From assembly GCA_965112155.1 (NCBI GenBank), contig OZ218100.1: DNA of 64,000 nt. One strand, given 5' to 3'. The notes under the pieces are model-generated. The model was given only the letters and a program-made list of their open reading frames with translations. It searched no databases and was not told the origin of the DNA. This document shows positions 8,432-61,300 of the stretch, in pieces. The translations under genes and the position numbers were made by a program. This stretch comes from Podarcis liolepis (Eukaryota). Positions within the stretch are counted from its first letter, which is position 1. Each line of letters begins with the position of its first letter.

Positions 8432-8664
8432 CAGTGGTACCCTGGGTTACAGACACTTCAGGTTACAGACTCCGCTAACCCAGAAATAGTACCTCTGGTT
8501 AAGAACTTTGCTTCAGGATGAGAACAGAAATTGCATGGCAGCAGCGGCAGCAGCAGCAGCAGCGGGAGGCCCCATTAGCTAAAGTGGTACCTCAGGTTAA
8601 GAACAGTTTCAGGTTAAGAACGGACCTCCAGAATGAATTAAGTTCTTAACCCGAGGTACCACTG
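8432..8664 (+). mobile_element. Tc1/mariner (pogo/Tigger-like) MITE, family A
   Basis: TIR CAGTGGTACC..GGGTTA, left TA flank; four more homologous copies in the window. Confidence 0.88.
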
Positions 8665-8691
8665 GACAGAACAGACAGCCAATGTGGCGCC

Positions 8692-18023: not shown

Positions 18024-18265
18024 CAGTGGTACCTCGGGTTACATATGCTTCAGGTTACATACGCTTCAGGTTACAGACTCCGCTAACCCAGAAATAGTAC
18101 CTCGGGTTAAGAACTTTGCTTCAGGATGAGAACAGAAATCATGCAGCAGCGGCGCAGCAGCAGCAGTAGGTCCCATTAGCTAAAGTGGTGTTTCAGGTTA
18201 AGAACAGTTTCAGGTTAAGAACGGACCTCCGGAACGAATTAAGTTCTTAACTCGAGGTACCACTG
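18024..18265 (+). mobile_element. Tc1/mariner MITE, family A
   Basis: TIR CAGTGGTACCTCG, TA on both sides. Confidence 0.9.
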
Positions 18266-20369
18266 TAATGATGTGACTAATTCTGTGAAAGCAGCAGTTC
18301 CTTTGGAATGGTACACATCTGCCCTGTGAAAGTTCTTGTCTGCCTTTGTGCAACACTTCTTCCTTTTCTCTGGTGGTTGCAAACTTGTGGTGATGCCACC
18401 AACCTGCAAATTATGATGATGTGCTGACACCGAGGCTACTCCAGCCCATGTTGACCAGTGTTTAATTGGTATCCTCAAAGCCCATGTCCAATTTATGTGG
18501 CAATGTTTGCTTCTACACTAGAGCCCTTTAACTCTGCAGAGCTATTTTCTTTCCACCATTAGCTGGAAGTGGAATTCAAATGCATGTTTGGTATAGTATT
18601 TAATACAGTGTTATATCATCCAACAACATCAAAGGTTCTTCTATATATTTTATTCTGATCCAAGTCTCATTCAGCAAATTTAGCCTGCAGTATTAATTAC
18701 AAGCTTCATGTTTGTCGATTCAACTTATTTTGTTTGCTTTGACTTCCTTTTTCACACAACCATGAGTATTGGTGAATAATAATAAAAACAATTCTTTTTT
18801 TAACCAGAAGGTACCAGGATGGGTTACTCCAGGTAAATGGGTTAGGACTGCAACCTAAGTCCCACTTTGTTCAGCAGGACTTACTCCTAGGCAACTGTGT
18901 ATTGATTGTAGCCTGATGCAAGAAAAAACCCCATTATTGTGGTTATTTTCTATTTCAAATAAACCTTTTCTTTTAGAACTCATTAGTGACTCCAGAATTA
19001 CATGTATAACAAACATGCTTCCTATATAGAGAAAGCACTCAACTTATATTAATTAATTTTAGGGATAATTTACCAGGCCTTACTTCTTTTGCATTTGAAA
19101 TGCATAGGGACCAGAAGATGGTACAGTAAGATTGACTTGCAAATCAAACATGAACAATTTTGTCTCTCGTATAATAAAAAGAGTGCTCTGTAATCTCATT
19201 TGTGCCTTTGGCAAGTATTGTATATTGTCTATGCTGAGCTTGTTAAAAGATTTCAAATTGGCTTGCAGTGTAAAGAAACTATTTTAGTGGCATGCGAGTG
19301 GCATTGTTGCTTTCTTTTTGATTTATAAGTTTCAAGCTTTTACTGTGACTTGAGCTATAATTACCATTTGTAATTAAACAAGAACAATAATCATGATTAT
19401 TTTACACTCTTTAACACTATGAAAAAAATATCAGTTCAATCCACATTAGATTTTTATTGCATTTTGCCATAATAACAGTACGTTGTAAAATAGATTCTTT
19501 TCCAAAAGTAGAACCAGTTAATGGATGAAAATAAAACTTACTGAAAAATGAACTATTTTTCAAGAAGGCAGACTTTTGACACAATAAGCAGAACAACAAA
19601 AAGTGGAAAATATTTCAAACTTTTATTTTTCTAATTTACATAGTCATATTTCAACAAACATCTCTTCATGCTCATTACGTTTGCTGACTGAATTAATGTT
19701 GTTACTTTCCCTCGTCAAATAATACATAATAAAAGTACATTTTTATTATTTCTAGTTACATAACTTTCCATTTATTCCAGCCCTGATTATAAAACATATA
19801 AATGCAAGCTTAATCCAGGCATGGCTATATGTGCTTGGGAGCATGAGTGTGTGCATGTATATCTCTAACTGTGCAAGGAGCAGTGCATGCAAATGTCTGC
19901 TGCACATATTGTTCTCAACCTTAAAAGGTCCACCTATCACCTGAGATTTCACCCTTGTATCACTAGTCAGATGATCCCCCAAAAGCCTGCTTCAGCTTTT
20001 CAGGGAGCTGAGTGGAGGGGCCGGGAGGTTGGGGTTCATTCCACTCCACATTTCCACTAAACCCAGATTATCCATACTGTCACTGGTAACCTGGATAGTG
20101 TTACACATCTGTCTGCTAGATTTAATGTTGATTCAAGACTCACTTTTAGATTTCTCTCTCATTTCTTTTCAAGATTACTTTCCATTTGTTTGACTACCCA
20201 CCAAACAAAATATAAAATTATTCAATGGTCATCAAACTAGCCCACAGTCCAAGAGACATTCTTGTTTGAAAACAATTCCTACTGATTAGGATCCTGGAAG
20301 CTGTAGACTCTCAAAGTTTTCTAAACATTGTCGATTATCATTATCATCACCACCAGACATTTGAGCATT

Positions 20370-20523
20370 GATTCAGATCATTGGTCCATCTACCTAGTAC
20401 TGTCTACTACACTGATTGGCGGTAGCTCTCCAGGAAATTCCCAGACCTAGCTGAAGATGCCAGGGATTGAACCTGTGACTGTCTACATGTTAAGTGGATA
20501 ATCTACCACTGAGCTATGACCCT
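20370..20523 (-). mobile_element. tRNA-derived SINE (same family as 17788 and 56504)
   Basis: Reverse complement: AGCTCAGTGGTAGA...GGTTCAATCCCTGGCATCT...AGATGGACCAATGA. Confidence 0.7.
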
Positions 20524-21987
20524 TTCCAAGTAGTCCAGTAGGCTAGGATCCATCCAATTGCAGACCATGGAGTCCCTTGCTCAAGATCCAGAGCCTCTGA
20601 CAACACCACAAATGAAACTCTCTTCTAATATTCAGCATTATTACATGGAGTTATCTTTGCAGGGAAACATTTGCCTTGGCCTAAGCCCCCCCCCCCCTAT
20701 TTAATCTGTACATATATAAGCAAGAGAAGGGGAGGCACTGGGTGGGGGACTTAAAAGTATGAAAATTCTTTTCCCTTTTCACAACTTCAGGCAGACACTC
20801 ACAGCAATTCACAAATACAAATTCTTCCAAGGCATCTCTCCTGCTGAATTGTCTCCACCGTGAAGCTAATCTTCTGTCCTTTAACCTTTGTTTTTCATCT
20901 TGGAATTCATCTTCACTCAAGGAACATGTTTTGCATTTCATTGAGAGCTTACTAAATTCCTTTAATAGCTTTCTGTAGGAAACGTTATCAAACCTTTTAT
21001 AAAAAGCTTCATTAATTAGTTAATGTTAATGGAGCACTTCAAAGATTAAAAAGCACTGTATAAATGTTAAACAGTGTTATTATAAAAATGTTCCCTGAAT
21101 TTAATTGCTTCATTTTTAATGCAAGAGAAACTACATGATATGTGCCTAGCCAAATCTTGGTTGTCAAAAAATTGCAGGTTGCCTGAATTTGCTATGTGTT
21201 GTTTCTCCACTAACCCATGCAATGGAATCTACACCTCACCCAATGTCTAATAATTCATATGTTATGGGTATTTCTTAGCCCAATTGTCAAATAGCTTTCC
21301 ATGACCATTGAGCACACAGTCCACACTGAGGTGTTTGTGCAGATCCTTCCATTTGAGTTTTCTTTCCTAAAGAGTTTCAGTACTTCTGAGGGTCCCTCAC
21401 CTTTGCTGAACCTCCATCGTGTACATAAGATGGTGCCAGTAACATTTTTCATAAGCAGTGGAACTCATAGCTTTGAACATCAGAAATAGAGGGAACAATT
21501 ACATTCCTTCCCCATTCAACATTCAGCCATTGGATGGTTCCAATGTTTTATACACATTCTAATAGAGCAACAGATCTAAGAAGAGAATAGTCTTGTCTGC
21601 TGCTGGTGGGAAAGAGAGAAAAGAAGCAAAGTGGTCACCCATTGGAATGGAGATCTACCATTAGGCAGAGTGAATGAATGGGGTAGCATGAATGATGTTT
21701 GAGAATAGGGATACATTAGCGGTCTGTGTATGCATAGTGTGCAAGTAGCCCGTGTGTGAAACAGAAGCAGGAAGGCAACTCTTACAGCAGTGATCAGCTT
21801 GTTGTGTGAGTTGTCTGGGTGTGAATGGGATGTGTGCATTGTGGAAACTGTGTGGGGTAAGGATGAGTAAGTGTTACAAAGGGCATGATCTATCCCTTCA
21901 CAGAGTTGCCTCTGCAAGAGGGTATCTCCATAAAGGCACCACCACAGAGACCTTGCCCTCTCCCCCTAGCTCACTGGCCCTCATGTA

Positions 21988-22213
21988 CAGTGGTACCTTG
22001 GGTTAAGTACTTAATTCGTTCTGGAGGTCCGTTCTTAACCTGAAATTGTTCTTAACCTGAAGCACCACTTTAGCTAATGGGGCCTCCTGCTGCTGCCACG
22101 CCGCCGGAGCACGATTTCTGTTCTCATCCTGAAGCAAAGTTCTTAACCCGAGGTACTATTTCTGGGTTAGTGGAGTCTGTAACCTGAAGCGTATGTAACC
22201 TGAGGTACCACTG
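21988..22213 (-). mobile_element. Tc1/mariner MITE, family A
   Basis: TIR CAGTGGTACCT, TA on both sides, reverse orientation. Confidence 0.9.
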
Positions 22214-24043
22214 TATTATGTTAAATGGTCTGCAAAAGTCATTACATTAAATAGACCATATTATGTCTCTCCTAGAGTACGCAGTTTCCCAGTGCTTGTA
22301 ATGCCAGCAAGTGTTTGTGTGTGTCTAGAACCTTTTAAGGCCTCTGAGGGGTCTTGAGCCTGAAAGTTTGTTTGAGGCCCCATCCTTCATCTTTTCCGTT
22401 AAAGGGGTTGCTTGATAACGCTGATGTGTCCTTTTCTATGCATGAAGCCTATAGCAAATGTCCCCATTAACATCCTCCCATGTGCGCATCGAGGAAAAGT
22501 ATGGGTCCCTCTGTGGACAGGCCTCAAATTCAGAGTTATGGCAGGTGATTTGCAATATGCCAGGCACAACCCGCAACCATCTGAAGGCTAGTGGAGTGGA
22601 GAGGGAAGGGCTCGTAATGTCCTGTAGGGAAGAATCCCCAGTTTGTTTATTATTTGTTTGTTTTATATTTTGCCCTTCCTCCTGATAAAATAATCAAAAC
22701 ACTAAAAAACAATTCCAGTACATGAGTAGATTAGGAAAATCTCTACCGTCACAGAAGAGGAAGGTCTTCTGTAGGCACCAAAAAGACAATGGATATGGCC
22801 CAGCAAAAGTAGCGTGGATTGTGCTGAAGTTTTTTCTGGTTTTTAAAAACATGTCTCTGAGCTTTCATGGGTCTCTGCTTAGTACGTGACAGTTCGCTGG
22901 CTCAGTTGTGATTCCAATTCCACCGTTTTAATTTTAAAACAGAAAAATCAGCACAAGAAAACTCATTAGAGAAAACAAGCAAGGCAATAAATATCACTAT
23001 TAATATTTTATTCTATGCTTCTTCAGAAATGGAAGTTACTTGGCTTGTTGCTTTATTCCTCTTTTTTGCATATGCCATTTTAATTTTACTTCTATATGTA
23101 AAGTTTATTTTTTTTATTTAAAAAAGTAAACAATTAGAGTTTACTTTTGATTACTTTCATTCATTGGGAGGCTCTTTGATATAGCAGAGGTTTCTGTAAA
23201 TGTGGTGGAGGCATTTTTTCCCTCCTACTATTTGTTGCACCACTTCCCAACTCTCAGGAGCAGATATGTGGGGTACATAAGAGTTCTAGGGGAAATTTGC
23301 CAAAATCATTTCTTTTCCCCTTCCACTCACAGAAGCCACCACTGGAGGCTGTGAATGGAATGTCAGCATTGGATATAACCAATTCTTCATAAAACTAAAC
23401 ACTTGGTTGCTTCAGCATCCGTGAATAGCTTTATTTAGGCTATAATCTCAAACACACTTAACCAGAGAGTTAGTTTCAGCGACTATAGCAGAACCTCTGA
23501 GTAAAATGCTTAGGACTGCACTCTACCCTAAATGTGCTTTGGTGCTTCCATTCTTGGTAGAACTTCAGTCTTGCCAGCTGCATTATGCATTCCATCTTCA
23601 ATGCATTTTGAGGATCATGACCTTTATGAAATCCATACGGTTGGTTTGTATGATATAACTTCATTGTTCTCTCTCCAATGAAAATAACAATACAGTGTCA
23701 TATTTTGGCCCCTAGCCAGAATTTTTGAAAGCACCCTTTTGGGAAATCGTGTTGATATATTAACAACTCATGATTTGTTTCCTGTATGAGAGTTTCCTTG
23801 AGCTAAACAAATTATGAGTCCAAGTGAGCTACAGTTGCAAAAGATACCACTTACCTGGTGATGTCATTACCATGACTCAGTCCAATTTCTGCACACATGG
23901 AACTCCTAAGAGAGAGAGGGAGATCTGTGTCCTACTTTTAATAATTTGTAGCTAATATCAACTTTACCTGAGGTCTTGTACACATAAACAATGACTCTAG
24001 TACAATAACAGATAGGTAGCCGTGTTGGTCTGCCAACATCTTC

Positions 24044-25189
24044 ATGGCAGATTTAGAACAACGTTTCCTAAACTCCTACCCACTCAAACCTCTCTTGTAC
24101 CTGCGATACATTGACGATATTTTTATCATCTGGACACATGGTCAACAGACCCTGGACACCTTTCACCAGAAATTTAATGATTTTCACCCCACAATCAACC
24201 TAACAATGAATCAATCTATGCAAGAAATACATTTTTTGGACACTACTATAAAAATACAGGATGGGCACATAGACACTACCTTATACCGTAAACCAACTGA
24301 CCGACAAACATATCTACATGCCTCTAGCTACCATCCCAAACATACCAAACAGTCCATTGTATATAGCCAGGCACTATGTTACAGCCGCATCTGTTCCAAT
24401 TCTACAGACAGAGACTCTCACCTAAGAGATCTACAGCAAACCTTTTTAGAACTAAAATACCCAGCAGATGAAGTTAGACAACAGATCAACAGAGCCAGAC
24501 TGATACCCAGAGAGAACTTGCTGCAAGACAGACCCAAAAAAGAAAATAACAGAACACCTCTAGTCATCACATACAGCTCCCAAGTTAAAACAGTACAACG
24601 CATCATCAGAGATCTACAACCTCTCCTGGACAATGACAGTTCTCTTTCTCAAGCTCTGGGAGGAAGACCTTTCATTGCCTACAGACAGCCACCCAATCTT
24701 AAACAACCCCTAACCCACAATAATACTGCAACCAGACTTAACACGGACACTGGCACCAGAGCCTGCAATAAACCCAGATGCCAACTTTGCTGCCACATAC
24801 ACCCGGACAACATCATTACTGGCCCCAACAACATCACACATACCATCTCGGGACTATTTAATTGCTCATTGTCTAACATTGTGTATGCCATCAAATGCCA
24901 ACAGTGTCTTTCAGCTCTCTATATTGGACAAACAGGCCAAACCTTACGCCAAAGAATAAACGGACATAAATCTGACATCAAGAATCACAAAACAGAGAAA
25001 CCAGTAGGAGAACACTTCAATCTCCCAGGACATTCTATACAAGATCTCAAATTAGCTGTTTTACTACAAAGGAATTTCAGAAATAGACTGGAAAGAGAAG
25101 CTGCTGAATTGCAACTCATTACCAAACTTAAAACCATGGAGAGACCTGGTCTGAACAAAGACATTGGATTCTTATCTCATTATACATGA
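24044..25189 (+). CDS. PLE polyprotein C-terminal fragment: RT palm/thumb, Cys-rich linker, GIY-YIG endonuclease (N-terminally truncated)
   Basis: 381-aa uninterrupted frame with YLRYIDDIF (RT catalytic), FLD, LYRKPT and HP motifs, a C-x4-C-x2-C linker (CNKPRCQLC, typical of the Neptune group), NIVYAIKC..C...LYIGQT (GIY-YIG), the conserved R, REAAE and a terminal GLN. Confidence 0.92.
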   Translation: MADLEQRFLNSYPLKPLLYLRYIDDIFIIWTHGQQTLDTFHQKFNDFHPTINLTMNQSMQEIHFLDTTIKIQDGHIDTTLYRKPTDRQTYLHASSYHPKHTKQSIVYSQALCYSRICSNSTDRDSHLRDLQQTFLELKYPADEVRQQINRARLIPRENLLQDRPKKENNRTPLVITYSSQVKTVQRIIRDLQPLLDNDSSLSQALGGRPFIAYRQPPNLKQPLTHNNTATRLNTDTGTRACNKPRCQLCCHIHPDNIITGPNNITHTISGLFNCSLSNIVYAIKCQQCLSALYIGQTGQTLRQRINGHKSDIKNHKTEKPVGEHFNLPGHSIQDLKLAVLLQRNFRNRLEREAAELQLITKLKTMERPGLNKDIGFLSHYT

Positions 25190-25369
25190 CTAAGCCATTT
25201 TTCACCTTCTCACCCCTTGCCTTTTCCTGTAAGACCGATTGCAGTCGTTAAGAGTCGTCAACAGGCTCATCTCAGCTATCTGCCAATCACCCATTCCCAC
25301 CACCCTTCTGAGTAATACCCCTCCCCACCTTCTCACTATATAGAAGGATCTGGCAACCTCTGTTTCAGT

Positions 25370-25407
25370 GTATCTGAAGAAGTGTGCATGCACACGAAAG
25401 CTCATAC
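25370..25407 (+). ncRNA. Minimal type I hammerhead ribozyme motif in the PLE pLTR
   Basis: GTAT (stem I 5') - CTGAAGA core (25374-25380) - A - GTGTG/CATG/CACAC (stem II) - GAAA - palindromic AGCT in place of stem III - C17 (25403) - ATAC (stem I 3'). Confidence 0.85.
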
Positions 25408-26363
25408 CAAAAACTAACTTAGTTGGTCTTTAAGGTGCTACTGGAAGGATTTTTTTTATTTTGTCTAGTACAATAAGTCTGACATGGTCTAAAAAACAGC
25501 AAAGATATTATCAAACCCTGTATAATCAACTGAGGCAGAAGCAGCCATCTGCATCAGTGGATTGTCAATGGTTTCTGCAATTCTTCACATACTTACTGAA
25601 AAGAAAAGTCCTGTAGGCTTCAATGGGACTTGTACATACGCTCAGGACTGCAGTCAAGGGAAAAAGCCTTTCATTAACTGCAGGCATGGGCTAATCTGTG
25701 CCACCATTCTTATGTGACCACATGACAGATGTTTGTGGGAAGGCAAAAACTTTGAGATAATCAGGATTACGAATTTGTTGTCGTAGGGTTTTCCCCTATG
25801 CAGAAGGAGGAATGACGCCTCCACACGTTTCACTGACGTTACTGTGAAGTGAGCTTTCCTTCCTTTATTTGACCCATGGTGGCAGCAGAGTTACAGCTGA
25901 CTGGAATCCTTTCTCTCCTCCTTGCAGGGTTTTTCAGTGCCTTTTTAGAGCAAGTATGGCAGGCACTGTGGGACATTTCCAAGAACCTCTGTGGATGAAG
26001 CACTATCTGCTTGATCTACTGGTGTTAATGGCAATTTCAGTTGTGGCATTCAGAAAATCGGGTGACATCAGAGGGCTAACCCAGTGCTACTGTCCGGGAT
26101 AAATCTCCCTCAGATCAGATCAGATTGGCTAGCTTGTTAATGGAGGGATGTCATCAGATTTTTCTCTTTGGGGCACAGAATGACTGGCCTTTTGTCCTGA
26201 CTCTTTCATGTCAGATTTCCGCCTGACTACTGCTTGCCTATCCACTCAAGATATATTTTTTTCACTTCGGGGCTTGAATACCTGACAAAAGCAGTAGGTG
26301 GGTCATGATCATGCCACCATGATCCTAAATGCCAGTTTTTCCACAGCAACAGCTTGTCATACC

Positions 26364-27006
26364 TGTGGGAATGTTAAGGAAGATAGGATATATTGTTTTG
26401 ATATAATCCCTCCTCAGTCACGCTAGTGAGTGAACAGAAGAGCACATTCCCTTTGCAATTTATTGGAAGCAAGTTGATGATTCATTGGAATCCTTTAATT
26501 AAGCCATCCAGTCTGGCTTGTCCAGTCTGGATTGTTTCTGGTAAGTTTCCCCTTTATTTCTCTATTAAAATAATAATAACACAACACAGTCTTCTTTAAA
26601 AGCAAGAAAAACGTTTTACTCACATTCAGTTCACAGCAGTAATCTGAAGGCAGGCTTTATCTTGTGGTTACAGTGAAAAGAAGTCTGAGCTACATCTCAG
26701 ACTTTCTGCTTGTGGGCTCCATCCTATGTGAAGGTTGAGTCATTCACTGGCTAAGAGCCAGGAGAGCAAGAGTCCAGAGTAAGCGTAAGAGAATAAGAGA
26801 GCCCAAGAGTAAGAGATGGCTGCATGGCCAGCCATTTTATCTGGTCAGCTAGGGTCACGCCCATCTACCTGGTCACATACAGGAGGAGGAAGCTCGAGAG
26901 CAGGTATGACAGGAAGTCCTCCCTGTCTGGAGCCATTCCCTGTGTGTCCATTCTAGGCAATAAGAAAAGGTTGTACTTGACTGCTCTAGTAATAATACAT
27001 CTCACA
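26364..27006 (-). mobile_element. Older solo LTR
   Basis: TGTGGGAATGT...ACATCTCACA inverted termini, TSD ATACC/ATAGC (4/5), AATAAA on the minus strand. Confidence 0.6.
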
Positions 27007-29263
27007 ATAGCTAGAGATGTTGTCAAAGTTCTTCCAAGGCACGTTCAGAAAACAACTCAAAGGAGAGGCTAGCTGTCCAAGCCCCAAAATTCTTCTCTGA
27101 CTCAGATTGAAATCCTCTGGAGAAGAATTGTTAACTTTTCATATGCAACATAATTATGTCATGTGCTCTGTTACATTGCTTAGGAGAAAAGAAATAAGTT
27201 GCAGGGTTGGGCTGTGTGTGCACATGTACACATGTACATATGTGTGAGGGCTGTTCGTGGTATGGTCTTCTCTCCTTGGTAGTTATTGCTGTTGCTATTT
27301 TGCCCCTTCAACCCTCCTTAATGTATCTCTATTTAGTGGATCTTGTTCCATTGTGTTGGTTAGGCACAGAATGAAGGGACTGTGTGGAAGATCATTTTCC
27401 TGAGCCACTTCAATTCCTGGGAAAAATATAACTCTAGAATCCTCCAACTCTTTTTTTAAAAAATCTTGACTCATTTTGGAGTTAAACTAAGTCACACTAG
27501 GAAGAGTTTGCCCATGTCTAATCAAAGGAAGGAGCTTTCATGTCACTTTCATTGGTGAAATGTTCTAGTGAAAGTTGTGCACCTCATTTCCAACAGTATG
27601 CCTTATCATAGTAATACAGTATGCTATTCACGAGGGATTAATAATTCCCATAAAGTCAGGGTTCAGTCAACTCTGGTGGAGGAACAGATTTCCTGTATAG
27701 TTTTTTTTTTTTTTTGGCAGTTCTATATTATTAAAGTTCATATTTTTCATGTATTATTTGAATCACACACATCAAAATAATGAAGTCCCCTCCTTTCAAA
27801 TCTCTGGCATTTGTTTTCAATAGCCTTGTTAGCAGATTAACTTTTAGAACCCATTCTGCTTCCAAGCAAAAGGGGCCAAGTACCCCACAACTCTGTATAA
27901 GTTAAGTGGAGTGAAAATTGAATCCCTGTGGATGAAACAATATCAGTTAACAGGCTTCACAACATGAAAAAACGTAGAGCTTTCATTAGGCACCGGCAGT
28001 GGTAGTGTGTAAATACAATATTGTAAAAGGCTTTGGGCTAAAAGTGAAAGCTAACAGTTCCCTAGTAGCAGAGGGAAGCAACAATTAGACCAAATTGGTT
28101 TAATTGCTGATTAATTAGCCTTTAACAGAACTGAGAATGCAAACTGATTTGGGGTTATTGTATTTGGAACTTGTTTTGGGGGGTGGGTACTGGTTGTTAA
28201 TATTAGCCACTGGCAAAAGAGCTTAGGAAACTCACAGTTCAGCAGCTTACACAAAAGGAACATTTCAAGTAAATTCTATATAACCTGAATTTATTTAAGT
28301 AATGGCTAGTAGAGCCAAACACAGACAAACCACAAACAAAACCTGGAAGTTCTCTTTCACTTGCCCCATTGAAAAGAATAGGCTGGGTATGCTATTTCAG
28401 GAGAAAGTATGCTGAAATGTGCTTCCTATCAACAAAACGTTAATCACTGCAATTTTTGGCAATGGTTTATGTACCACTTATGGCATGTCCCGAAAGCTAT
28501 AAGTTACAGTATCAGAACTGTTTCAATCCTTCTGAATTCCAGACATGTGAGTGGGTCCACAGGGCTAGCAGGGGTCAAGGTGAGATCACTTCACTTGCAT
28601 GTTAGCTTCCCGTAGTGAGCAAATAGGTGCCTGCATGCAGAAAAACATGTTATATTGGGCATACGTATCCTTTCCAAAAGGGCACCACTGGGCTGAGTTC
28701 TCCCCCTTTACCTAAGTAATATGTAAGAATATTTTCCCATACTGCCCCATATGCACCTTGTGTGCTTCCTTGCTCCAACTCCACCACCACCTGTTATTGG
28801 CAGGGACTGCCAATGTGTCTATGTCACAAAATCACAAAGATTTCCTACACAGTGGCTACCACATGTTAGTGCTATGTGAGTGAGCCTGGGGCTCGTGTGT
28901 TCTCTTTTCTTCCTCCTCCTCCTCCTCTTGTGTGGCTATGAGGAGATTAGCAGCTTGATTTAGCAGCTTGCTGTTTCCTCCAAAACAGGGGAAGCTGTGG
29001 TTAGGCCAAACTACTGTCTGTCCAAACAAGCCAATATTTAATGATGGTTTCTGCTCCTGACTTGTTCGGATAAACCATAGATAAAATTAACTGCCATTCG
29101 CAGCTGAGATGAAATGGCACACTGTGGTTAGTTGGAAATAGAAGTGAATGTCTCTGATCTCTTTCTTGCACTTGTACTGGAAGAGGAGGGATATAATGAA
29201 GCAGGTTTGTGCACGCGACATTAAACTATAGGTTTAGCATTACATCCCTGAATCAGCCATTAC

Positions 29264-29431
29264 CAGTGGCGTAGCGTGGGTTGTCAGCACCCGGGGCAAG
29301 GCAAGTAATTTGCACCCCCTAACCCATGGATTTGCGCCCCCTAACCCCTGGATTTGTGCCCCCTAACCCTACCCCCAGGTGTTGCACCCGGTGCAGCCGG
29401 CCCCCTCTGCACTCCCCACGCTACGCCACTG
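29264..29431 (+). mobile_element. hAT MITE (CAGTGGCGTAGCGTGGG family), 168 bp
   Basis: 17-bp TIR, perfect 8-bp TSD GCCATTAC, internal ~22-bp tandem units containing CCCCTAACCC. Confidence 0.92.
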
Positions 29432-31392
29432 GCCATTACGGAAGAAAATTTGACAAGGGAATATGGTTTTGACTGGCATCTGTGTTCAACTGAGAATATA
29501 TCCTTAGGGATAATGCATACACTCCTGACTGGTTGCTATTTTCACCCATGTAGCCTTACCCTAAAGCAGGGCACCCCAAAATTCTGAGTTCATTGATCCC
29601 TAAATAAGCTTGTAAAGTTGTTTTCAATCCCAAATACGGAAGTTCCTCATTTGCATTCTGTAAATGCCCATGGCACAAGTCCACACTTAAAAACTCTGCA
29701 TTCAAGCGGGTGGAGAGCTTGTTGTTGTTGTTGTTGTTTTTCCTTGGAACCTTCCCTGCTAAAACCCACTCTTGGCTCAATCGGAATAAATATCAATGTG
29801 GGTTTTCTGCAGATTGATGTGTGCTCCGATTGAGCTTTAAAGAGCAGGTTTTCATGGGGAAAGCTCCAGAGCAAAAATAACAACAACTAAAGGACACTCA
29901 GACACAGAACCCTTCATCTGCTAAAAGCCACCAAGCTAAAAGCACAGCTTGAGTGTTCAACCTCCCTCTAGCGTTATCCGATGTAGAAAAATATTGGCCT
30001 CTGTCAGAGAAAGTTGGAAATGTATTGATCAACAGGAGCAGCATATCATAGATGTTTGCTTCTGCCTGAAATCTTTCTAACAGATGCATCTCAATAAGTC
30101 ATGAACCTTTGTTTTAGATTTATCTCAGTAAGTATTCATTTGCAAATCTTTGCAGTGGTAATGCAGCAATCCAAGCAATTGAACAAATATTCTTTTCTTC
30201 AAGTGATCCTTACGTAGGTTTTTGTTTGTTCTTTTTACCACTCCCAAATCTGTAATTTGAATGTTAGAGATTACACTGTCTGAAATAAACATCTGATTTG
30301 AAACTGTCTTCCTACTTCTTTCCATCCTCCACAATACTCCCAAGCGGTGCATCCTTGGCTAAGAGGCATCTTAGCATCATCTCTGACAGTGCTCTAAGTG
30401 CCACATTGCAACTTTGGGGCCTTCTCACTGGGCTAGTTTGCATATTGCCATCCTTGTGTTATATCTGCATGTATTTTGTGACATGAGAGTGATTCTCAAG
30501 TGTACATCTGTGTCTTTAAAATTCAGCATGAGTACTCTCCCACAGTCTGTAACTATGACAGCAAAATGCTTTCTGATTATATATACAGATGAGTTTTGGG
30601 TTTGTTTTTTTTAAACCACCAGAATATAAAGGCATCAGAGTTTTATACCTAGAGACACAGACTGGCATCTTTTCACCCACCGTCATTGTGGTATTGCTTT
30701 ATTATTGCATCCCCATAGTTTCAACACATAACACAAATATCTCAAAAATTGCAAAATAAAACTTGCTCAGTAGACTGGCTCAGCAGCAGAAATCAAATAT
30801 CGGGAAGCAACTGGATGGCATATCAGAGAAGAAATGCAGAATTTAATCACAACAGTTTGGGGAGGAGAGAAACCCTTTAGCTTTTAAAATGTCATCAGAA
30901 TGTGGTAGAGCAGTTCAGATGTGGATTTTGAAAATTAATGCATAATTGGAAATCTGCATATTATCTATCTGTAGCATTTTACCCCATTCTTCTGCCAAAG
31001 GGGCTCCCACAGGAGTTTACAAAGAACAATAATAAAACAGTCTCTGCCTTCAGGCTTAATTGTGTTATTAAAAGACACAACACAAAAAGAAAAGAGATAG
31101 AAAGGGAGAAGGTGGAAAGCAAGCTTACTAGTTACCAGGCTCTTATACTGACCAGCTGGAATGAAAATAGTTCAAGGAGTACAGCCAAAAATTGCTGGTT
31201 GCTGAGATGATGGAGTGGCCTTATTTCCTCCTTTTCCCTTTGGTGCAGCCTGATGGAATAGTGGCTGCCAGGTGATAGTTGATAGAGGAAGGAACCTAAT
31301 AAAGTTGGCTTCTCAGTGGGGTTAATGGAGTGGTCCCACCTCTTTCCTCTCTTGCACCCCAACAGAATGGCTGTTGCAAGATGACAGGACAG

Positions 31393-44500: not shown

Positions 44501-45901
44501 TATGTAAAATATAGCAATTTTCTAACAAAATGCCATACTTAACATATCTAAAGGTCTGTGGTGCTATACTACCAACCTGTAAAATAATGAGTTGACTTTA
44601 TCTTGTAGTATATAACACAGTGAGTTTTTACAGCCTATTATACTCTTACAGTTGGGGTTTTAAATGATTTGATCAGATAAATTCTGCTTAACCTCCTGCT
44701 GGGAGTTTAGGAAAATATATTGAATGGGTCCTAGAATAGTATTCCTTAAATTCTATTGTGTCTTATAGATTGTTGCAACCATTCAGCCAGAAGCATCATC
44801 CGTTCCTTTTCAAAAGTTCCCAGGAATCAATTTAAAATTACATCTTGTAGAGGGCTAAATTTGCATGATGTTCTTTTAACATATCATCACAGAAATATTT
44901 CGTTCTACAAAGCCAGCTGCCCATAATATTTATTGCCACGCTGTTCCTATTGTTTCCTTCTGTATCAGCCCTGATTCCTATGCATTTCTGTTCACCTATA
45001 ACTGTTAGGTTCCAGTTCCTCCCATTCTGGCATACGACATCTATAATCGAGTTAATTACCTTTAAAGAAGGGATCAACAAATTATTACAGTGCAGGACTC
45101 CAAAAATCAAAATAATTTTTGGACACCCAGGTTTCCCCAAAAGGAACAGTTAAGGTATATATTGATAACTCGGCTTAGGTGATACGAGTAAAAGAGCTAT
45201 AGGCAAGCAGAATAAGAGAGGAGGCTGTGGAGTTATGAAACCAAATGTATTGCATAGTTCCCCCCCCCCCCACCTATTCATGCTTGCTTGAAAATAAGTC
45301 CTGCTGAGATCAATAAGACTTACTCCTTTGGGTAGCAGATTTTGGAGTACAATTAAAAGGAAAAAAATAAATAAATTAATATTTAGTTTACTATTATTTT
45401 ACCATAAAAGTGTCTGCGATTTGTATCCTTGGAAGCTTTGTTTCTGAGGTTAATTGTTGGGGGCTGGGGTGCATTGGTCACACAGGCTGCCAGATGGGTG
45501 GGTCATGCAAATTTATCCCAAATATGCTGTTCAGGATCTTTGTACAAAGACATTAGGTAGCTCAGCAACCATCAAATGTGTTTGTCTAGGGCAGGCCCAG
45601 TTAGGCCCAGGGAATCACCAACTTCAGTAAACAGACCAGCCACAGTGGACCAAAATGGAGGACAATGTGCCACTGTTTGGAATTCTTGGGCAAACTGTTT
45701 GGAATTCTTGCTGAACAACGGCATTCATGTGAGATACTGGCATTTTAGGATATAAGGACCTGGCGATTAGGTTAGAGAAAACATCATGCTGAATAAGATG
45801 CTAAAGAACGCAACCAGCATCTTAGCAGATTTGGAATCAGAACATTGATGGATTGTGTTGAAGAATGTGCTGGAATGTATCAAAGTGACCTGAGTAAAGT
45901 A

Positions 45902-46140
45902 CAGTGGTACCTCTGGTTATGTCCTTAATTCATTCTGGAGGTCCGTTCTTAACCTGAAACTGTTCTTAACCTGAAGCACCACTTTAGCTAATGGGGCCTT
46001 CCGCTGCTGCCGCCATGTGATTTCTGTTCTCATCCTGAAGCAAAGTTCTTAAGCCGAGGTACTATTTCTGGGTTAGCAGAATCTGTAATGTAACCTGAAG
46101 CATATGTAACCTGAAGTGTATGCAACCCGAGGTACCACTG
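45902..46140 (-). mobile_element. Tc1/mariner MITE, family A
   Basis: TIR CAGTGGTACCTC, TA on both sides. Confidence 0.9.
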
Positions 46141-47306
46141 TACTGCCAAAAAGCAGGCATTCCAGTTAACACTTCCTCCTGCTTAGATTATTGACTCTCC
46201 TAATCTGCCATTTACATAGGTTCCCCTACTAAAAGGATTGGTGTAAAAGTGGATTTGGTCCTGTCTACATTCACTTTGCCCCATTCTTTCTCATGCCACA
46301 GCCCAAACCTTGCCCTCTCAGAAGTAAATTCTGTTGAATTCAGGTAAACCTGATTAAGATTACAGCCACATTATCATGCAGCAGAAGACAGATTATGATG
46401 CATCAGAGGACAACCCTAACCCTAACCCTAGGGCAATAATTCAAAGTCTCATGCCTAGAGCAAAAACTACATCTTGATTACTTTGTCAGGGCAATATAAT
46501 GCTCTTTTTGTGCTGTTCTTAATGCATATTTTGTATGTACTCCATTGCTATACATTTATTTATACCCCACCCTTTTCCCAGACAGGGACTCAAGGCAGCT
46601 TACAAATAGGAACAGCTAAAAACATTTAAAAAAGCAACACACATAATTAATTTAAAAAAACGATTACATTTTCCTAATTTGTTGCTTTTTCTTCTATGCT
46701 CATAACATCTTCTATACAGAGAGAATATTATTCTCCAAATGAAGCATCATGCATTGCTTTCGGTTCATTTCAGCTACAATTTTGAGTCTGTGGTCTTCCT
46801 CACTGCTTATGTCTTATTCCTTGATCAACAGGTTGCTAAAGTGCAAATATGAGCCCCGATTAGATTATCAAATTAACAGAAGCTACTGCTTTCCCTTCCT
46901 TGGGGGCTTCCAAAATCCTTTACATCTGCTGAGGCAAAATAGATGAGAATTATCCATGCTCCAATCCCTTCTAATTCTCTACTTTTCCATTTTCTCTTAA
47001 CTTTTTATCACCCTCTGAATGCTCAGAGGCAGACCCATTGCAACCTTGCAAGCATCTTAGGCAAAATAAGAGCCCTTATTACCTTTGGTTTCTGCAATGG
47101 CCTGATTTTCCCCAAAGTCATATTGCTCTCTTTCACTAGGGTGGAAAGTCTAGAGACCCTCTTCCACCTGCCAGCATAACACAGTTTTTCTAACTGTCAA
47201 CATCTCTGCTGATAGGGGTGCAGTTCACTTCTGCATTAGACCTTGGATATCTTAAAGTATATTGCATTGTACGATCAGGCCATGTACTCAGGCCATGCAC
47301 CCTCAG

Positions 47307-51729: not shown

Positions 51730-53479
51730 TTTATTTATATCCAGCCCTCCCCAGCCGAAGCTGGGCTCAGGGCGGCTAACAACAATCAAAATAGCTCAAC
51801 ATTCTAAACCATTCATTATAAAATTAATTAAATCAAATTAAAATCAAATTAATGGCAACCATCAAGCAAAATTTTGTGCAGATTGCCAGAGGAGGGGGTC
51901 AGGCTGCGCCCTGACAAAAGGCCTGGTGGAACAGCTCTGTCTTGCAGGCCCTGCGGAAGGATGTCAGGTCCTGCAGGGCCCTAGTCTCTTGTGACAGAGC
52001 ATTCCACCAGATTGGAGCCGCGGCCAAGAAGGCCCTGGCTCTAGTTGAGGCCAGCCTAACCTCTCTGAGGCCTGGGATCTTTAGGTTGTTTTTATTTGCA
52101 GACCGTAAATTTCTCTGTGGGACATACCAGGAGAGGCGGTCCCGTAGGTACGAGGGTCCTAGGCCGTATAGGGCTTTAAAGGTTAAAACCAGCACCTTAA
52201 ACCTGATCCTGTACTCCACCGGGAGCCAGTGCAGCTGGTACAGCACCGGATGGATATGATCTCGCAGCGAAGACCCCGTAAGGAGTCTCGCCGCGGCATT
52301 CTGCACCCGCTGGAGTTTCTGGGTCAGTCTCAAGGGCAGCCCCACGTAGAGCGAGTTACAATAATCCAGTCTGGAGGTGACCGTCGCATGGATCACAGTG
52401 GCTCGGTCAGGGCGAGAGAGATAAGGAGCCAACTGCTTAGCTTGGCGGAGATGAAAAAATGCCGCCTTTGTTATAGCTGTAATCTGCGCCTCCATAGAGA
52501 GGGAGGTATCGAAGATTACACCCAAACTCTTCACGGATGATGCTGGCACTAATTGCACCCCCGCAAGAGACGGGAGTTGCCCCCTCAATCCCATATCGCT
52601 CCGTCCCAGCCAGAGGACCTCTGTCTTTGAAGGATTTAACTTCAACCGGCTCCCACGTAACCATCCAGCCACAGCTTCCAGACATCTGGTCAGTGTATCT
52701 GGGGCCGAGTCAGGATGGCCATCCATCAACAGATAGAGTTGGGTGTCATCGGCATACTGATGGCAACCCAGCCCAAAACTCCGGACAAGCTGGGCGAGGG
52801 GGCGCATAAAGATGTTAAAAAGCATCGGGGAGAGAATCGCACCCTGAGGCACTCCACACACCAAGGAGTGGCGCGATAACAATTCCCCCCAAGCGCCACC
52901 CTCTGTCCCCGACCAGAGAGAAACGAGCGCAGCCATTGAAGGACTGTGCCCTGGATCCCCACGTCGGCAAGGCGGCGGTCCAGGAGTTCGTGATCGACCA
53001 TGTCGAAGGCTGCTGACAGGTCTAGAAGAATCAGCAGCCCCAACCCGCCTCGATCCAGCTGCCTGCGGAGATCATCTGTTAGGGCGACCAGAGCCGTCTC
53101 GGTCCCATGGCCAGCGCGGAAGCCGGACTGGAATGGGTCGAGAGCAGATGTTTCATCCAGAAACCTACCAAGCTGTTCAGCAACCGCTCTCTCAATCACC
53201 TTACCCAGGAATGGAAGATTCAAAACCGGGCGGTAATTGGATAGATCTAAAGGATCTAATGATGTTTTCTTTAAGAGCGGACGCACCACTGCCTCCTTCA
53301 GTTCCCCTGGGAATATCCCAGTGCCAAGGGACAAATTGATGATATCACCCAGGGGGGCCCGCACCTCGTCTGGACACGCTCTAATCAGCCAGGACGGGCA
53401 CGGGTCAAGAGGACAGGTGGTGGGCTTTCCAGCTTGGAGGAGTCTGTCCACATCGGCTGGGGACAGTTCCGGAACTTAG
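51683..53479 (-). mobile_element. L2-clade LINE, 5'-truncated, with 3' stem-loop and (ATT)n tail
   Basis: ORF2 RT motifs; 3' end GTTAGCCGCCCTGAGCCCAGC...GGATATAAATAAA followed by (ATT)n at 51683-51727 on the minus strand. Confidence 0.93.
51899..53451 (-). pseudogene. L2 ORF2 reverse transcriptase fragment with one frameshift
   Basis: Two overlapping ORFs (52726-53451 and 51899-52936) carry NYRPV, QSGFRAGHGTETAL, LLDLSAAFD, GVPQGAILSP, YADDTQLY, LKLNPSKTE, SRLDYCNSL and LHWLPV. The frame changes at the C6 run 52885-52890. Confidence 0.9.
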
Positions 53480-53724
53480 AGAGGTGCAGAATCATACAGC
53501 CTAAACAATAAAACAATTGCCTTAGAATCTATATGAAATGTTTCTTTAGATTTGGATACTGCGACAAATAATATTTTGGATATACTGAACTCCACAGTGT
53601 TTATATAGGAAGGCACTGTCGAATATAGATATAGTTACAGATAGGTAGCCGTGTTGGTCTGCCATAGTCAAAATAAAAAAATTCCTTCCAGTAGCACCTT
53701 AAAGACCAACTAAGTTAGTTCTTG

Positions 53725-53762
53725 GTATGAGCTTTCATGTGCATGCACACTTCTTCAGACAC
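53725..53762 (-). ncRNA. Hammerhead ribozyme motif, inverted copy
   Basis: Minus strand reads GTGT-CTGAAGA-A-GTGTG CATG CACAT-GAAA-GCT-C-ATAC; stems I and II are kept through G.U wobbles. Confidence 0.65.
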
Positions 53763-53898
53763 TGAAGAAGTGTGCATGCACACGAAAGCTCATACCAAGA
53801 ACTAATTAGTTGGTCTTTAAGGTGCTACTGGAAGGAATTTTTTTATTTTGACTATGGTGTATATCTGAAGAAGTGTGCATGCTCACGAAAGCTCATAC
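53762..53898 (+). ncRNA. Two tandem hammerhead cores 103 nt apart
   Basis: CTGAAGA at 53762 and 53865, each followed by stem II, GAAAGCTC and ATACC. Copy 1 lacks the stem I 5' strand; copy 2 has one stem II mismatch (CTCAC). Confidence 0.65.
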
Positions 53899-54121
53899 CA
53901 AGAACTAACTTAGTTGGTCTTTAAGGTGCTACTGGAAGGAATTTTTTTATTTTGAATATAGATATAGATATAGTTGGAGGGGTAATGCTGAACATTTCTT
54001 GTTGAGGCATATGATGTGGGCTTGTCCAGTGATATAGTCTCTTTGGTCTGAAGTTCTTGTCTGTATCAATTTTGTATTGGCACAATCCTTGAAGTTTGTA
54101 GGTGTCAGTCTATGTTCATGT

Positions 54122-56694: not shown

Positions 56695-58084
56695 AGATCC
56701 TTAATTAACACAGTGATGTGGTCATATTTTCAAGGCAAATCAGGTCAGTTTATTTTTTTTAAACAAAGCTACTATGAATGGAAATTTAGAATTAGATCTG
56801 CCAGAAGGACCTTTTAAGGCTACCTGCTGGAGTCTAGCTTGTGCAGAGCAATAGCAATATGACTCCAGATTTTGGTACCCAAGACTGCTGCAAAATGTGG
56901 AATCAGGAGTTGGATTGGAGTGACAAGTGCAAAGCTACAATATTATAACTGCCAAACCAGGATTGATATTGGGCATTTTAAGCACTGTCAACGTCAATTT
57001 GACTACACAAGCCAAAAGAACAAAACAAAATCCCTTTTACTGGTGACCAAGGCAATTGTGAAGAAGTTCCTGAGTCAGGAGTACTATTTCTCTGCTCAGC
57101 ATGTATACCAATTGCCAAGCTGTTAAATCTGTAAGAGAAATTAAAATTTTAATAATAAAGTGATTCACAATATAGTCTATGGTGCTTGTATCATATGCAC
57201 GTGCCTTTCTTTTTTTCTTTTTACTCTTGTACTCTGTGATAACCTTCTGCATTTCTATTTTCTGCAGCAGCAATGTGCAACTGTACCATGGGGCCAGTGG
57301 GACAAATTCATTTTGATTGTAAAATTCCATTGACACTAATGGAGTTTTATACCCAGAAAGAGTTTGGCACAATGTCCTTAGATTGCTTTTTATTCACAGT
57401 TTGAATCAGAATTGTTTTTCCCTTGGGGGCAATTGTGATTAAAGATTTCAAAAAGACCACCAATGCTTGGGTTTTATGGTGTGGTGTAAAACAATGGGAT
57501 GTAGGGTTCGCTGTCAGCTAAAATAACAGATTATACAATACGTTTTGCAGCGTGACTTGTAACCTATGCAGGTGTTTTGGCTGCCCAGGTTTGGGAAAGA
57601 GTTTCAGCAGCTGATGGGTTACCATCCTGGGGAAAAGGAGATAGTACTGAGCTAAACGGTCTCTCTGAGGCCCGTGTCAAACGATAGCACCAAATGAAGG
57701 CCATCAAAGCCTGACATTCTTGGCAGTCACTCCGAGACACTGGGATGGGGACTTTGTACTGACTGGGGTACCACCACATTGTAGGGGGTTTTGGTGGCCT
57801 CTCCATCTTTGCATACAAAACAGCTCCAATGTGAGAAAGAAATGGAAAGCACTATCAGCCTCTTGGACCCCATAAAAGTGCCACAAGCTGAGTTGATTTC
57901 CACAGTAATTCCCCACCTCTGTCCTCTGCCACAGAATAGGGCTAAAAGATACGTCCGGGTCTGTGTGATTTTTCTCTGAGCCTGTATGCACAGTATTTTG
58001 AAATAGACCAGTTGCCCACTGAGGAAAGAATAAAGTCATCTTCAAGGTGCGGCATTCTTCATCGTCTGACTGAAAACCTAGATA

Positions 58085-58310
58085 CAGAGGTACCTCGGGT
58101 TACAGACACTTCAGGTTACAGACTCTGCTAACCCAGAAACAGTACCTCGGGTTAAGAACTTTGCTTCAGGATGAGAACAGAAATTGGGCTCCGGCAGCAC
58201 AGCAGCAGCAGAAGGCCCCATTAGCTAAAGTGGTACCTCAGGTGAAGAACAGTTTCAGGTTAAGAACGGACCTCCAGAATGAATTAAGTTCTTAACCCAA
58301 GGTAACGCTG
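58085..58310 (+). mobile_element. Tc1/mariner MITE, family A
   Basis: Slightly decayed TIRs, TA on both sides, same body. Confidence 0.88.
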
Positions 58311-61300
58311 TACAATCTCTGGAAAGCAGTGGAGAACTCTGCTCTGTGGGGTGTTCAGGTCACCTTCCTTCATCTTCTGTTGGGACCCCAAGCTTTCTCT
58401 CGAGGCAATAGAAGAGATTCACATTTCTCCCCGCCCCCTCCAAAAAGAAACATTTTCATATGGATCATTATTTAAATGTGATGCCATCTGAGGTGATACA
58501 ATTACATGAGGCACCTGGGCCTGCACTGTTGCTGAATGTTTGGTATCACCTTATATGCAACACTCTATATCTACATTTCAGAGCCCCATGAAAACACATC
58601 TAAATGCATGCCTAGTGATAGCATCACTTAATGATGTGCTTGTTTGCTTTGCCTTTGTAGATACCATAAGACCAGCTAAGACCTGCCTCTCAGGGCAGTC
58701 ACAGTGCATAGGTACAGTATAGCTGGGAGTCAGATTGTTATTGGGGACATGGAAAGCTACCATAGAATGACAGATCAATGTTCCCTATGGCTCAGTATTA
58801 TTATGATTGGCAGCAGCTTCCCAGAGTTTCAGACAGGAATATTTCCCAGACCTACCTGAATATTCCAGTGGATAGCAGTAACAATACTGCCGAATGCTTT
58901 ATATTTTATTCTTAATGAGAGCCACATACAAAGGAGGGAGGGAGGAAATAGAGTTCATGTATGTAAGTATGATGTATTTATATGGCAGAGAACTTAACTT
59001 TTAAGAGTATTTGAAGATGTCACAATGTAGTATTCTTCATGCCTGCAACAAATACTTAAAAAATCAGCTGTCAATAAAATTCATGCTAATGCTGCAAGTG
59101 AAATATTATGAAACAACATGCATACAGAATGGCTGTAGTCTGCAAACAGTCCAGTGAAGCATTTGGTTTTAATTGACTGGGAGGAATTGAATTAAATCAA
59201 ATTGTTCCAGTTAAAATACTTTGTGGATTTGGATGTCCATTTCTCTATTCCTTTGCTCCTTTGAAAATTTTAGAACCTTATTCCTGTTGACTTCAAAGAT
59301 TCTTTATACTCTCTGAAATTGTGATCAGCAAAGTGACAATCTATAAAGTCAGGAGAGATTGGTATGTATATGTTTTCCTGGTATATAAATGACTGATGTC
59401 CTTCACTGATGTAAAATGTTATCATATTCCCAGCACAAACATTTGGAATGCAATATGCAGAATGAGAGATGTAGTCAGAGAAACTGGTTAAATTTTTATA
59501 TTCTTTATTATATAAAAGTATTCTTTTTTAAAAGAAAAAAAAGGAACTGGCAGCAAATTAAAGTGGAAAGCTCTGCATTTGGTTTGCCCATTATTAGAAA
59601 TGCACTTTCCCATTTTGGATCCAGATTGTTCTCTCTTCTTGGCATTGTCTCACAAATGAGTTGCTTTTTAATCTATACACTATCCATTTATTAAATTAAA
59701 TTGTGAAGAAAACCTTACACTGGAGAAATACTTCTTTTTTTCTAAAAAAAATGAGCGGGAGCTTGCAATGTATTAATTGTTCCATATTTTTTGGCAAGGG
59801 ATAACAAAAGACTATTAAGAGCAGTTCCCAAGCTCTTTTTTTCCTGGGCTTCTATTGGGCGTTGATTGCACCAAGCAGGTTTTCTCTTATCCATTATCAT
59901 GTTACTGTGCAGAGTCTGATCTTCTGTACTGGAGTCAGGGAGAAGTACAAAAACAGAAGTACAAGGGTCAGGCATCTTAACTGGGGAGTGTGGGAGCTAA
60001 AAAAAACTTAGGAAGTATATCAGGCATGGGGACTCATGGGCCCAGAGGTCAAATGTGGCCCTCCAAGTCTCTTTACCTGGCCCTCAGGAACCTTCCTATA
60101 CCACATTCCCTCCCTAACCACACCTACTCTTCTCATCCCATACCCCTCTTCACTTGAGTTCTTTTGCTTGCTTAGAATGTGTTATTGAACTCTGATATTG
60201 CCTTTTGCTTCTCTAGATGGAAGCTCAAAAAAAGTGTGTGTGTAGAAATTAGCCTACTGTAAAAAGGTAAATTGACATTGGTGGTTCCACTTTTTTCTCT
60301 GGCCTTGCCCACCACTGACAGCTGATCCCTCAAAGATTGCCCACAAAGTGGAGGCTGATGGTTACTCATAATTTAGGCAAACACATTCTAGACAAAAGAA
60401 TTTGTCTTTACTTCATCTGTTCTTGGGCAGTAAAATGTTGGGGGGGGGAGCATTTGTGTTGACCCAAAAAGGTGAACTGGTCTGAAAATCCTGCTTGCAG
60501 CATATTGATGGTCAGGATGACCCCCACCTAATTGGTACCAGCTGTAGCACCAAGCTCATCTGTGTTTCACACACTTTCATGTATCCACAGGCTCCTGCAT
60601 AGCTAGAGGGGAAGGATCCCAGGCAATGGTTAATACTAACCACCTATGTTCCCATGTGACATAGCCTGCCTGGGCTTACAAAGATTGTGTGTATTTTTAC
60701 TTGGGTGCAGACAAGCCATCTCCTCGCAGTGGAGTCTGTCCCATGGAATGCTGTAAGCAGGGGCAAGGAGGGAGCCATTGTACCCTTCTTTAATAAACCA
60801 TTATACCTGATCATTCTGGTGGTTTGGGCATCTTTCATTGGAATTCCTGAAAATCTGAACTGCTGTGAGCTCTCCTCTGGCTCTGAAGGACGTTTCAGGC
60901 ATTCCATTGTATGCTTCCCGTCATATGATTTCTGAAGTGTTTATGCTTCGTAGTATTCATGGCTATGTCTGATTGACATTGGTTGATCTCTGAATTCTAA
61001 AATCAAAACACATTTGCAACTTCTGTGATCACAGGTAGTACCTAGGGCAGTCTTTGCCAGTATGATGCCTTTCAGGTGTTTTGAACTACAGCTCTTGGCT
61101 GAGAGGAATCATAGGTCAAGGCACCTGGAGAGGGAAGCATGTTGGTTAAGGCTGACCTAGCATCTGACTTCAGGCTGTGGCTTCTTTTCTGACTTTTAAA
61201 ACATGCAGGCCAAGGGATTGAGCTCATCATTGTGTTTGCCTGCTCTTTTCTTTTTGAAAGGAAACTGTAATGCTGGGGTGGCAGCTGGAAAGAGAGGAGC

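Follow-up and report, generated by a model that had tools for sequence, protein, structure and literature searches.

The role of the hammerhead in Penelope-like elements (PLEs) is described as unclear (PMC8557442), and a compact motif at positions 25370-25407 of the window—i.e., the whole 64,000-nt stretch of DNA analyzed here—raises the question of whether it is a hammerhead ribozyme and whether the RNA of its host element is cut by it. An original prediction had placed here a minimal type I hammerhead in the terminal repeat of a PLE, which would self-cleave after C25403, most efficiently as a dimer paired through AGCU and with stem I extended by a distal pairing. From the evidence given below, we consider that the motif is probably a weak, conditional ribozyme in the first 40 nt of a capped mRNA and that it stays uncut in most of the RNAs that are reverse-transcribed.

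The motif and its host element

Letter for letter, the hammerhead core with stems I and II and the extra A was found where it had been predicted (Table 1), as were the stem III cut down to a self-complementary AGCU and the position some 180 nt past the ORF stop (the stop codon ends 181 nt upstream). Every sequence feature of the published minimal hammerheads (min-HHRs), whose definition comes, together with a listed turtle motif, from a 2014 paper (PMC4209133), is present; cleavage as a dimer stays predicted. In the window copy, stem II and its loop form a perfect 14-nt palindrome. The identity as a minimal type I hammerhead of a PLE pLTR is supported, with the predicted scissile bond after C25403, and, judged by its letters, the motif is a real minimal hammerhead of a class already in print.

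Table 1. Coordinates of the element, the motif, and associated features in the window
Feature	Position	Strand	Basis or remarks
5'-truncated Neptune-type Penelope-like element	24009..25463	+	Likeness to intact tandem unit, target duplication
13-bp target-site duplication, left copy	23996..24008	+	
13-bp target-site duplication, right copy	25464..25476	+	
Inverted 26-nt tail piece (ORF's first codons)	24009..24034	-	
Open 3' ORF part	24027..25189	+	RT end, Cys linker CNKPRCQLC, GIY-YIG endonuclease, stop codon
pLTR	25190..25463	+	Serves one unit as 3' UTR and the following one as promoter and 5' UTR
TATA-like box TATATAGA	25337..25344	+	31-33 nt above the 5'-end pile-up; putative promoter role
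Putative transcription start	25368..25370	+	Modal 5' ends of copies (48 and 35 of 212)
Minimal type I hammerhead motif	25370..25407	+	Core letters, 9,879 exact genomic copies, published motif comparison
Stem I, GUAU / AUAC (4 bp)	25370-73 / 25404-07	+	
Core CUGAAGA	25374-80	+	
Extra A after A9	25381	+	
Stem II, GUGUG / loop CAUG / CACAC	25382-86 / loop / 25391-95	+	
Core GAAA, GC, UC	25396-99, 25400-01, 25402-03	+	
Palindromic stem III AGCU	25399-25402	+	Self-complementary (15.1-16.1)
Predicted cleavage bond	between C25403 and 25404	+	
Predicted inhibitory pairing partner	25428..25446	+	Complementary to core, stem I 5' strand, and 25363-69; ViennaRNA only

A structural hammerhead descriptor gave 0 matches when run on 100 random 64-kb sequences from a first-order Markov model, and the exact 38-mer of the motif is present in 9,879 copies in the genome, compared to 0 for the reversed control. 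An Rfam scan of 20000-30000 with E up to 10 returned no hammerhead match at the motif and 8 weak matches, all away from it; a Hammerhead_HH9 match at 25631-25694 was taken as chance (16 bits versus a gathering threshold of 52). The 38-mer folded no better than its shuffles (z -0.44; ViennaRNA), and the z-scores of four stretches were all non-significant. Given this Rfam silence and ordinary folding energy, the support for the motif comes from its core, its context, and covariation, not from energy. As to membership of the canonical type I hammerheads (Rfam CL00010), there was no Rfam match, and stem I has 4 bp, not a 6-bp helix I; a canonical type I ribozyme with a loop 1-loop 2 contact was ruled out, the distal extension of stem I being unsupported. 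A degenerate hammerhead pattern gave 0 matches in metagenome contigs, and no further homologues therefore came from that source.

The host element shares 96.8% identity over 1,440 bp with an intact tandem unit of the same genome. It has a single pLTR, and its 5' end is the 26-nt inverted tail piece, which meets the RT region through a short overlap. The linker CNKPRCQLC between RT and EN fits CX2-5CXXC, which marks Neptune and Nematis PLEs (PMC8557442). Since Neptune and Poseidon are the PLE clades found in vertebrates (bioRxiv 10.64898/2026.07.22.740005), Neptune was preferred over Nematis, and we class the host as Neptune-type, an assignment made from the linker and the host range. Because the window copy is single and contains 1.16 kb of RT/EN coding sequence, it was regarded as a truncated PLE, and a non-LTR retrozyme, in which hammerhead-bearing units stand in tandem and are non-coding, was rejected. 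The same-strand core nearest to the window motif is at 53762, 28.4 kb off, with none closer, and the window copy is likely a dead-end, inert insertion. Above the TATA box lie a CCAAT-like box (25283-25289) and a C-rich box (25317-25326), the former of which is changed in the youngest intact units.

The family, a Neptune-type Penelope-like retrotransposon, is young and very abundant. Exact copies in the genome number 15,382 for a 29-mer 3' of the motif, and a 37-mer near the ORF start has 75 with ≤1 mismatch (control 0 in both cases). A complete 910-aa ORF was present in 5 of 20 stretches around the ORF start (L181, L182, L183, L187, and L197); by Pfam, it contains RVT_1 (E 1.3e-11) plus a GIY-YIG domain at its C terminus (E 2.1e-05), and a PDB sequence search with it gave 0 matches. 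Intact units measure 3,008 bp and stand in tandem, and two neighboring units in L182 are identical. Together, the intact ORFs and these identical neighbors suggest that the family is likely still, or was very recently, active. In intact tandems, the ATG of the ORF lies 92 nt after C3, so that the motif belongs both to the 3' UTR of one unit and to the 5' UTR of the unit after it. Tandem and inverted pLTRs plus an optional tail were found, as in Neptune-clade PLEs.

A second insertion of the family, made of pLTR pieces only, lies at 53638-53954 of the window. Here, an inverted copy with tail is followed by two direct copies 103 nt apart (cores at 53762 and 53865), of which the former lacks the 5' strand of stem I and the latter is mismatched in stem II. 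Elsewhere in the genome, the minus strand of L185 carries three hammerheads 336 nt apart in a retrozyme-like tandem, the unit of which runs from the putative start through the first ~240 nt of the ORF; this tandem was made by repeated jumps.

Other repeats were also encountered. With the two main families excluded, a generic hammerhead descriptor gave 114 matches versus 59 in the control, and the excess was mostly due to an RTE-like element (L232-L257), in which a core look-alike stands directly before an endonuclease-like coding start. This look-alike has a G-G mismatch at 1.1-2.1 and no palindrome and was rejected as a hammerhead, being taken as chance because its stem I fails to close properly; one match, L259, is a real older relative. 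A second PLE family, which we infer to be Poseidon-like, occurs at L008, L020, and L338. It has its own minimal hammerhead with a 6-bp stem II, an ACGU palindrome, and a weak stem I (4 copies in the loci examined), and its copies end in (TA)n tracts. The window also holds broken RT frames of another LINE-like element (51899-53475, minus strand) and, at five places, a repeat of ~220-250 bp with inverted ends (8449-8666, 18050-18267, 21984-22216, 45899-46143, and 58082-58314), probably a small DNA transposon.

Excess conservation of the core among copies, on which the original prediction had staked itself, was observed. In 58 read-through copies from loci L031-L200, only 10 of 1,334 letters in the core and stems I and III were off their column's commonest, compared to 61 of 2,320 in the 40 nt upstream of the motif and 16 of 638 in the 11 nt downstream (nominal p 3e-5, this and other p-values being only nominal because the copies are not independent). 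Two earlier substitution-rate counts were confounded by junctions and locus choice, and the 58-copy count is cleaner. Covariation in stems I and II, a check proposed at the outset, was borne out against the turtle motif; within the young family, there is almost no variation for it to act on. Stem I is GUAU/AUAC here and GCAU/AUGC in the turtle, and stem II is GUGUG/CACAC here and GUGGG/CCCAC in the turtle, with one compensated pair in each. This likeness to the turtle motif suggests that the host is a non-avian reptile. The older relative L259 keeps the core and a different stem II that still pairs, and is mismatched in stems I and III. The catalytic positions C3, G5, G8, G12, and H17 obey the cleavage rules across metazoan PLEs, and H17 in the copies of this genome is C, with U only as inherited variants. 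Genome-wide, 712 copies are without C17; among 30 of them, U17 was found in 19 and A17 in 2, with the upstream part intact. Both U17 and A17 satisfy the UH rule. In the U17 subfamily (L201-L230), A at 25442 is linked to U17 in 13 of 19 copies.

Where the copies begin

The 5' ends of copies were mapped on the first 100 matches with a 3' anchor (contig C1, first 4.5 Mb, loci L061-L135). Forty-four of the 100 began at 25363-25373, 15 of these at 25368, and 26 over 25375-25419, while 30 continued further upstream and 0 began at 25404. At tail-anchored loci (58 copies), 28 began at 25364-25371 and 1 at 25404. Consistent with a break at this place, the genome count dropped from 9,879 to 3,997 when the motif was extended by 7 upstream letters. 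Among the intact-core copies of all loci (n = 212), 77 read through, 48 started at 25368, and 35 started at 25370. A G that is not encoded by the element precedes 25370 in 25 of the 35 junctions (expected fraction 0.30; nominal p 4e-7), and an untemplated 5' G has been taken as a cap trace for L1 (PMC9341517). Older subfamilies have a canonical TATA box, TATATAAG, and break at the same place, and a similar pair of TATA and Inr has been described in a rotifer pLTR (PMC3846280). Together, the 5'-end pile-up, the extra cap-like G, and the TATA spacing suggest that transcription starts at 25368-25370. Since the pile-up lies at 25363-25373 and not at the cut site, the templates were likely capped, uncut RNA from the motif on.

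Some observations run against a capped start. The commonest end, 25368, shows no excess of G, T preceding it in 36 of 48 junctions, partly through GTG microhomology, and the Penelope promoter of D. virilis is internal and TATA-less (PMC2377424). Moreover, RT might instead have stalled at the 5' edge of the folded motif, a stall that belongs to a different explanation in which the motif is non-catalytic (protein-binding, a translation element, or an RT pause/jump signal) and never cleaves in vivo. The pile-up does sit where stem I begins on its 5' side, hammerheads are missing from Naiad and most Chlamys PLEs, which thrive nonetheless (PMC8557442), and RNA ends at the cut site were found neither here, where reads are mostly read-through, nor in Anolis (PMC11167929). 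However, an RT moving 3' to 5' meets a helix at its 3' foot (25407 or 25395) and should stop there, ahead of unwinding; both the TATA spacing and the extra G indicate a real RNA end; and the catalytic positions follow the cleavage rules, so that we consider a non-catalytic role doubtful.

The pile-up could also mark spliced RNA, with TTTCAG at 25363-25368 as a 3' splice acceptor. A pyrimidine tract followed by CAG indeed stands ahead of stem I, and in D. virilis an intron ends at the 5' side of helix I (PMC4209133). However, no common upstream exon is seen in the sequences joined ahead of the pile-up, which vary and for the most part are pieces of the same pLTR in inverted orientation; the RNA reads held no skipping joint, and the copies end at 25368 and 25370 rather than at 25369. 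We therefore regard splicing as highly improbable.

At the other end, the tail was present in 49 of 100 copies and absent from the other 51, two classes that are expected for internal RT initiation (PMC11167929). A capped, mostly uncut template could be used as follows. In a tandem, the TATA promoter of the upstream pLTR would start the RNA at 25368-25370. Reverse transcription would initiate internally, just 3' of the 5' UTR, giving two 3' ends with or without a ~35-nt tail, and would proceed 95-130 nt across the intact scissile bond up to the cap, where RT would often put a C opposite the cap and then jump template. Such jumps may have yielded the fragments with a hammerhead that occur by the thousands, solo, inverted, or in tandem. 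Any cleavage would need the pairing, through AGCU, of two hammerheads that lie 3,008 nt apart on a transcript longer than one unit; it would probably be helped by the element's protein, and its outcome would be the removal of the cap or the release of unit-length RNA.

A possible cleavage footprint, folding, and dimers

Genome-wide, a copy was counted as having a junction at a position if neither of the two preceding letters matched the element, which gave 68 at 25404, 26 at 25401, and 11 at 25407. The 68 correspond to 0.4% of the 15,382 anchored copies (~0.8% allowing for the two-letter exclusion), i.e., a signal at 25404 of <1% of copies versus ~44% at the putative start. AG precedes 25404 in 20 of the 68 and GT in 23, and the remaining 25 equal the 25401 control. 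Thirty of the 25404 junctions were viewed; 6 were fold-backs via stem I microhomology and 9 were zero-spacer palindromes, and the palindromic ones could be cDNAs ending at the cut 5' end or mere self-complementary overlap. This excess, small and ambiguous as it is, favors rare cleavage, and the junctions suggest that genomic copies were likely made overwhelmingly from uncut RNA. Since degraded or religated cleaved RNA would leave no insertion trace, the junctions limit the part of cleavage in making templates, not cleavage itself.

RNA reads came from four raw runs of two studies (~6-12% of each run), matched by species label and maybe not from the species of this genome. They cover the pLTR on both strands and the ORF start barely, with loose ends at the equivalents of 25368, 25370, and 25371 and at both 3' ends, mirroring the genomic junctions. 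Because 86-92% of the mapped reads continue into unlike sequence, they are mostly read-through of scattered copies; in the four runs, they showed no pile-up of beginnings or ends at the cut site or, as counts against a capped start, at the start.

The original prediction had stem I extended by a distal pairing of 25363-69 with 25440-46. This complementarity exists (7 bp, one G-U pair), but the extension did not hold up: in the window copy, in read-through context, the pair probability of stem I is 0.00, and A at 25442 breaks the distal pair in 13 of 19 U17 copies. The distal segments are instead predicted to close a long hairpin in which the 5' strand of stem I and CUGAAGA pair with 25428-39 (ViennaRNA), and most of the 5' arm lies upstream of the likely RNA start. 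The distal pair is thus predicted to nucleate an inhibitory hairpin rather than to extend stem I. At a length of 51 nt, RNA beginning at 25368 favors stem I (0.9); at 76 and 98 nt, stem I is lost, at 146 nt it is back as the tail pairs (0.7), and at 306 nt it is lost again (ViennaRNA), although these predictions are context-dependent and weak.

The efficient self-cleavage as a dimer that had been proposed found no backing here, there being no same-strand partner closer than 28.4 kb, published dimers being weak, and copies coming overwhelmingly from uncut RNA. An efficient, dimer-activated ribozyme that routinely cuts element RNA at C25403, its stem I lengthened through the distal pair, would fit the intact and conserved core, the higher junction count at 25404 than at 25401 or 25407, the presence of two motifs per more-than-unit transcript of intact units, and the cleavage, weak as it was, of S. 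mansoni min-HHR dimers and trimers in vitro (PMC4209133). Yet the share of copies beginning at 25404 is minute compared to that at the putative start, 43 of the 68 junctions carry AG or GT before 25404, the other 25 being at control level, and the distal pair is predicted to be inhibitory and is broken in most U17 copies. We therefore consider routine dimer cleavage unlikely. In a dimer assay, a competing 14-bp duplex could arise from the palindromic stem II; it is predicted at -28.0 kcal/mol versus -12.7 for the double hammerhead (ViennaRNA). This palindrome was rejected as a functional dimer signal: the loop is non-palindromic in the turtle and fish motifs, and a variant that breaks it recurs (7 copies).

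A weak ribozyme on a capped, mostly uncut template may be taken further, in a joint reading that we hold only tentatively. Here, the first base of stem I would be the transcription start, and the motif would serve as a protein-gated off-switch that decaps its own mRNA, held by the anti-core hairpin and freed by tail pairing, with a strong-stop-like cDNA and, at 25404, a fossil of rare cleavage. If true, the 95-130-nt strong-stop-like cDNA of the uncut capped 5' end jumps template and rebuilds the pLTR, such rebuilding explains the thousands of solo minimal hammerheads in genomes, and the small junction excess at 25404 is a fossil trace of rare cleavage in vivo.

Comparison with known systems

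The published metazoan PLE min-HHRs (PMC4209133) share with the window motif the letters CUGANGA, GAAA, and UH with one extra base between 9 and 10.1; a G10.1-C11.1 pair, here G25382-C25395; a palindromic 15.2-16.2 with no helix III loop and a 4-bp stem I; and the pLTR location with thousands of solo copies. The motif of the turtle Chrysemys picta bellii has the same core and AGCU with compensated stems. Stem II here, in contrast, is 5-6 bp and palindromic including its loop, which the listed turtle and fish motifs are not, and the 2014 min-HHR description, as far as its account of the motif goes, gives no placement relative to the transcription start. Among published min-HHRs, cleavage is absent in monomers and weak in dimers (PMC4209133); a short palindromic stem III and a dimer model are likewise shared with the PLE hammerheads described as cleaving as dimers (Lunse, Weinberg and Breaker 2016/2017, via PMC6765202).

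The host resembles the EN+ PLEs of the Neptune clade in its single ORF with RT, CX2-5CXXC linker, and C-terminal GIY-YIG, as well as in its 5' truncation, partial tandems, inverted 5' piece, and a tail of 30-40 bp in that clade (Craig et al. 2021, PMC8557442). Animal non-LTR retrozymes are also alike in having a type I hammerhead from a pLTR (bioRxiv 10.64898/2026.07.22.740005), and short tandem units occur in the present family (336 nt in L185; 103 nt at 53762/53865).

An experimental counterpart is PAc, a Poseidon-clade PLE from Anolis carolinensis (PMC11167929, Frangieh et al. 2024). Hammerhead mutants of PAc leave insertion unaffected in vitro, its cleavage needs protein, RT starts internally, and the main substrate is uncut RNA. 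Both families have an internal RT start, copies with and without tail, a hammerhead near the ORF start, and an uncut template RNA, with no RNA-seq ends at the cut site. Unlike the present family, PAc belongs to the Poseidon clade and its ORF starts inside stem II, whereas here the motif lies wholly in the 5' UTR, with the ATG 92 nt after C3 and a Neptune/Nematis Cys linker. The full-text literature searched, mainly open-access papers, held no vertebrate Neptune hammerhead placed at the cap site from genomic junctions. Together, the ~15,000 junctions form a natural record that points to uncut templates and to a start at the motif itself. This record carries what was found in vitro for the Anolis Poseidon element over to a second clade, in vivo, and speaks against routine circle formation ahead of insertion, and the identical intact tandem units with their 910-aa ORF provide a practical system for testing.
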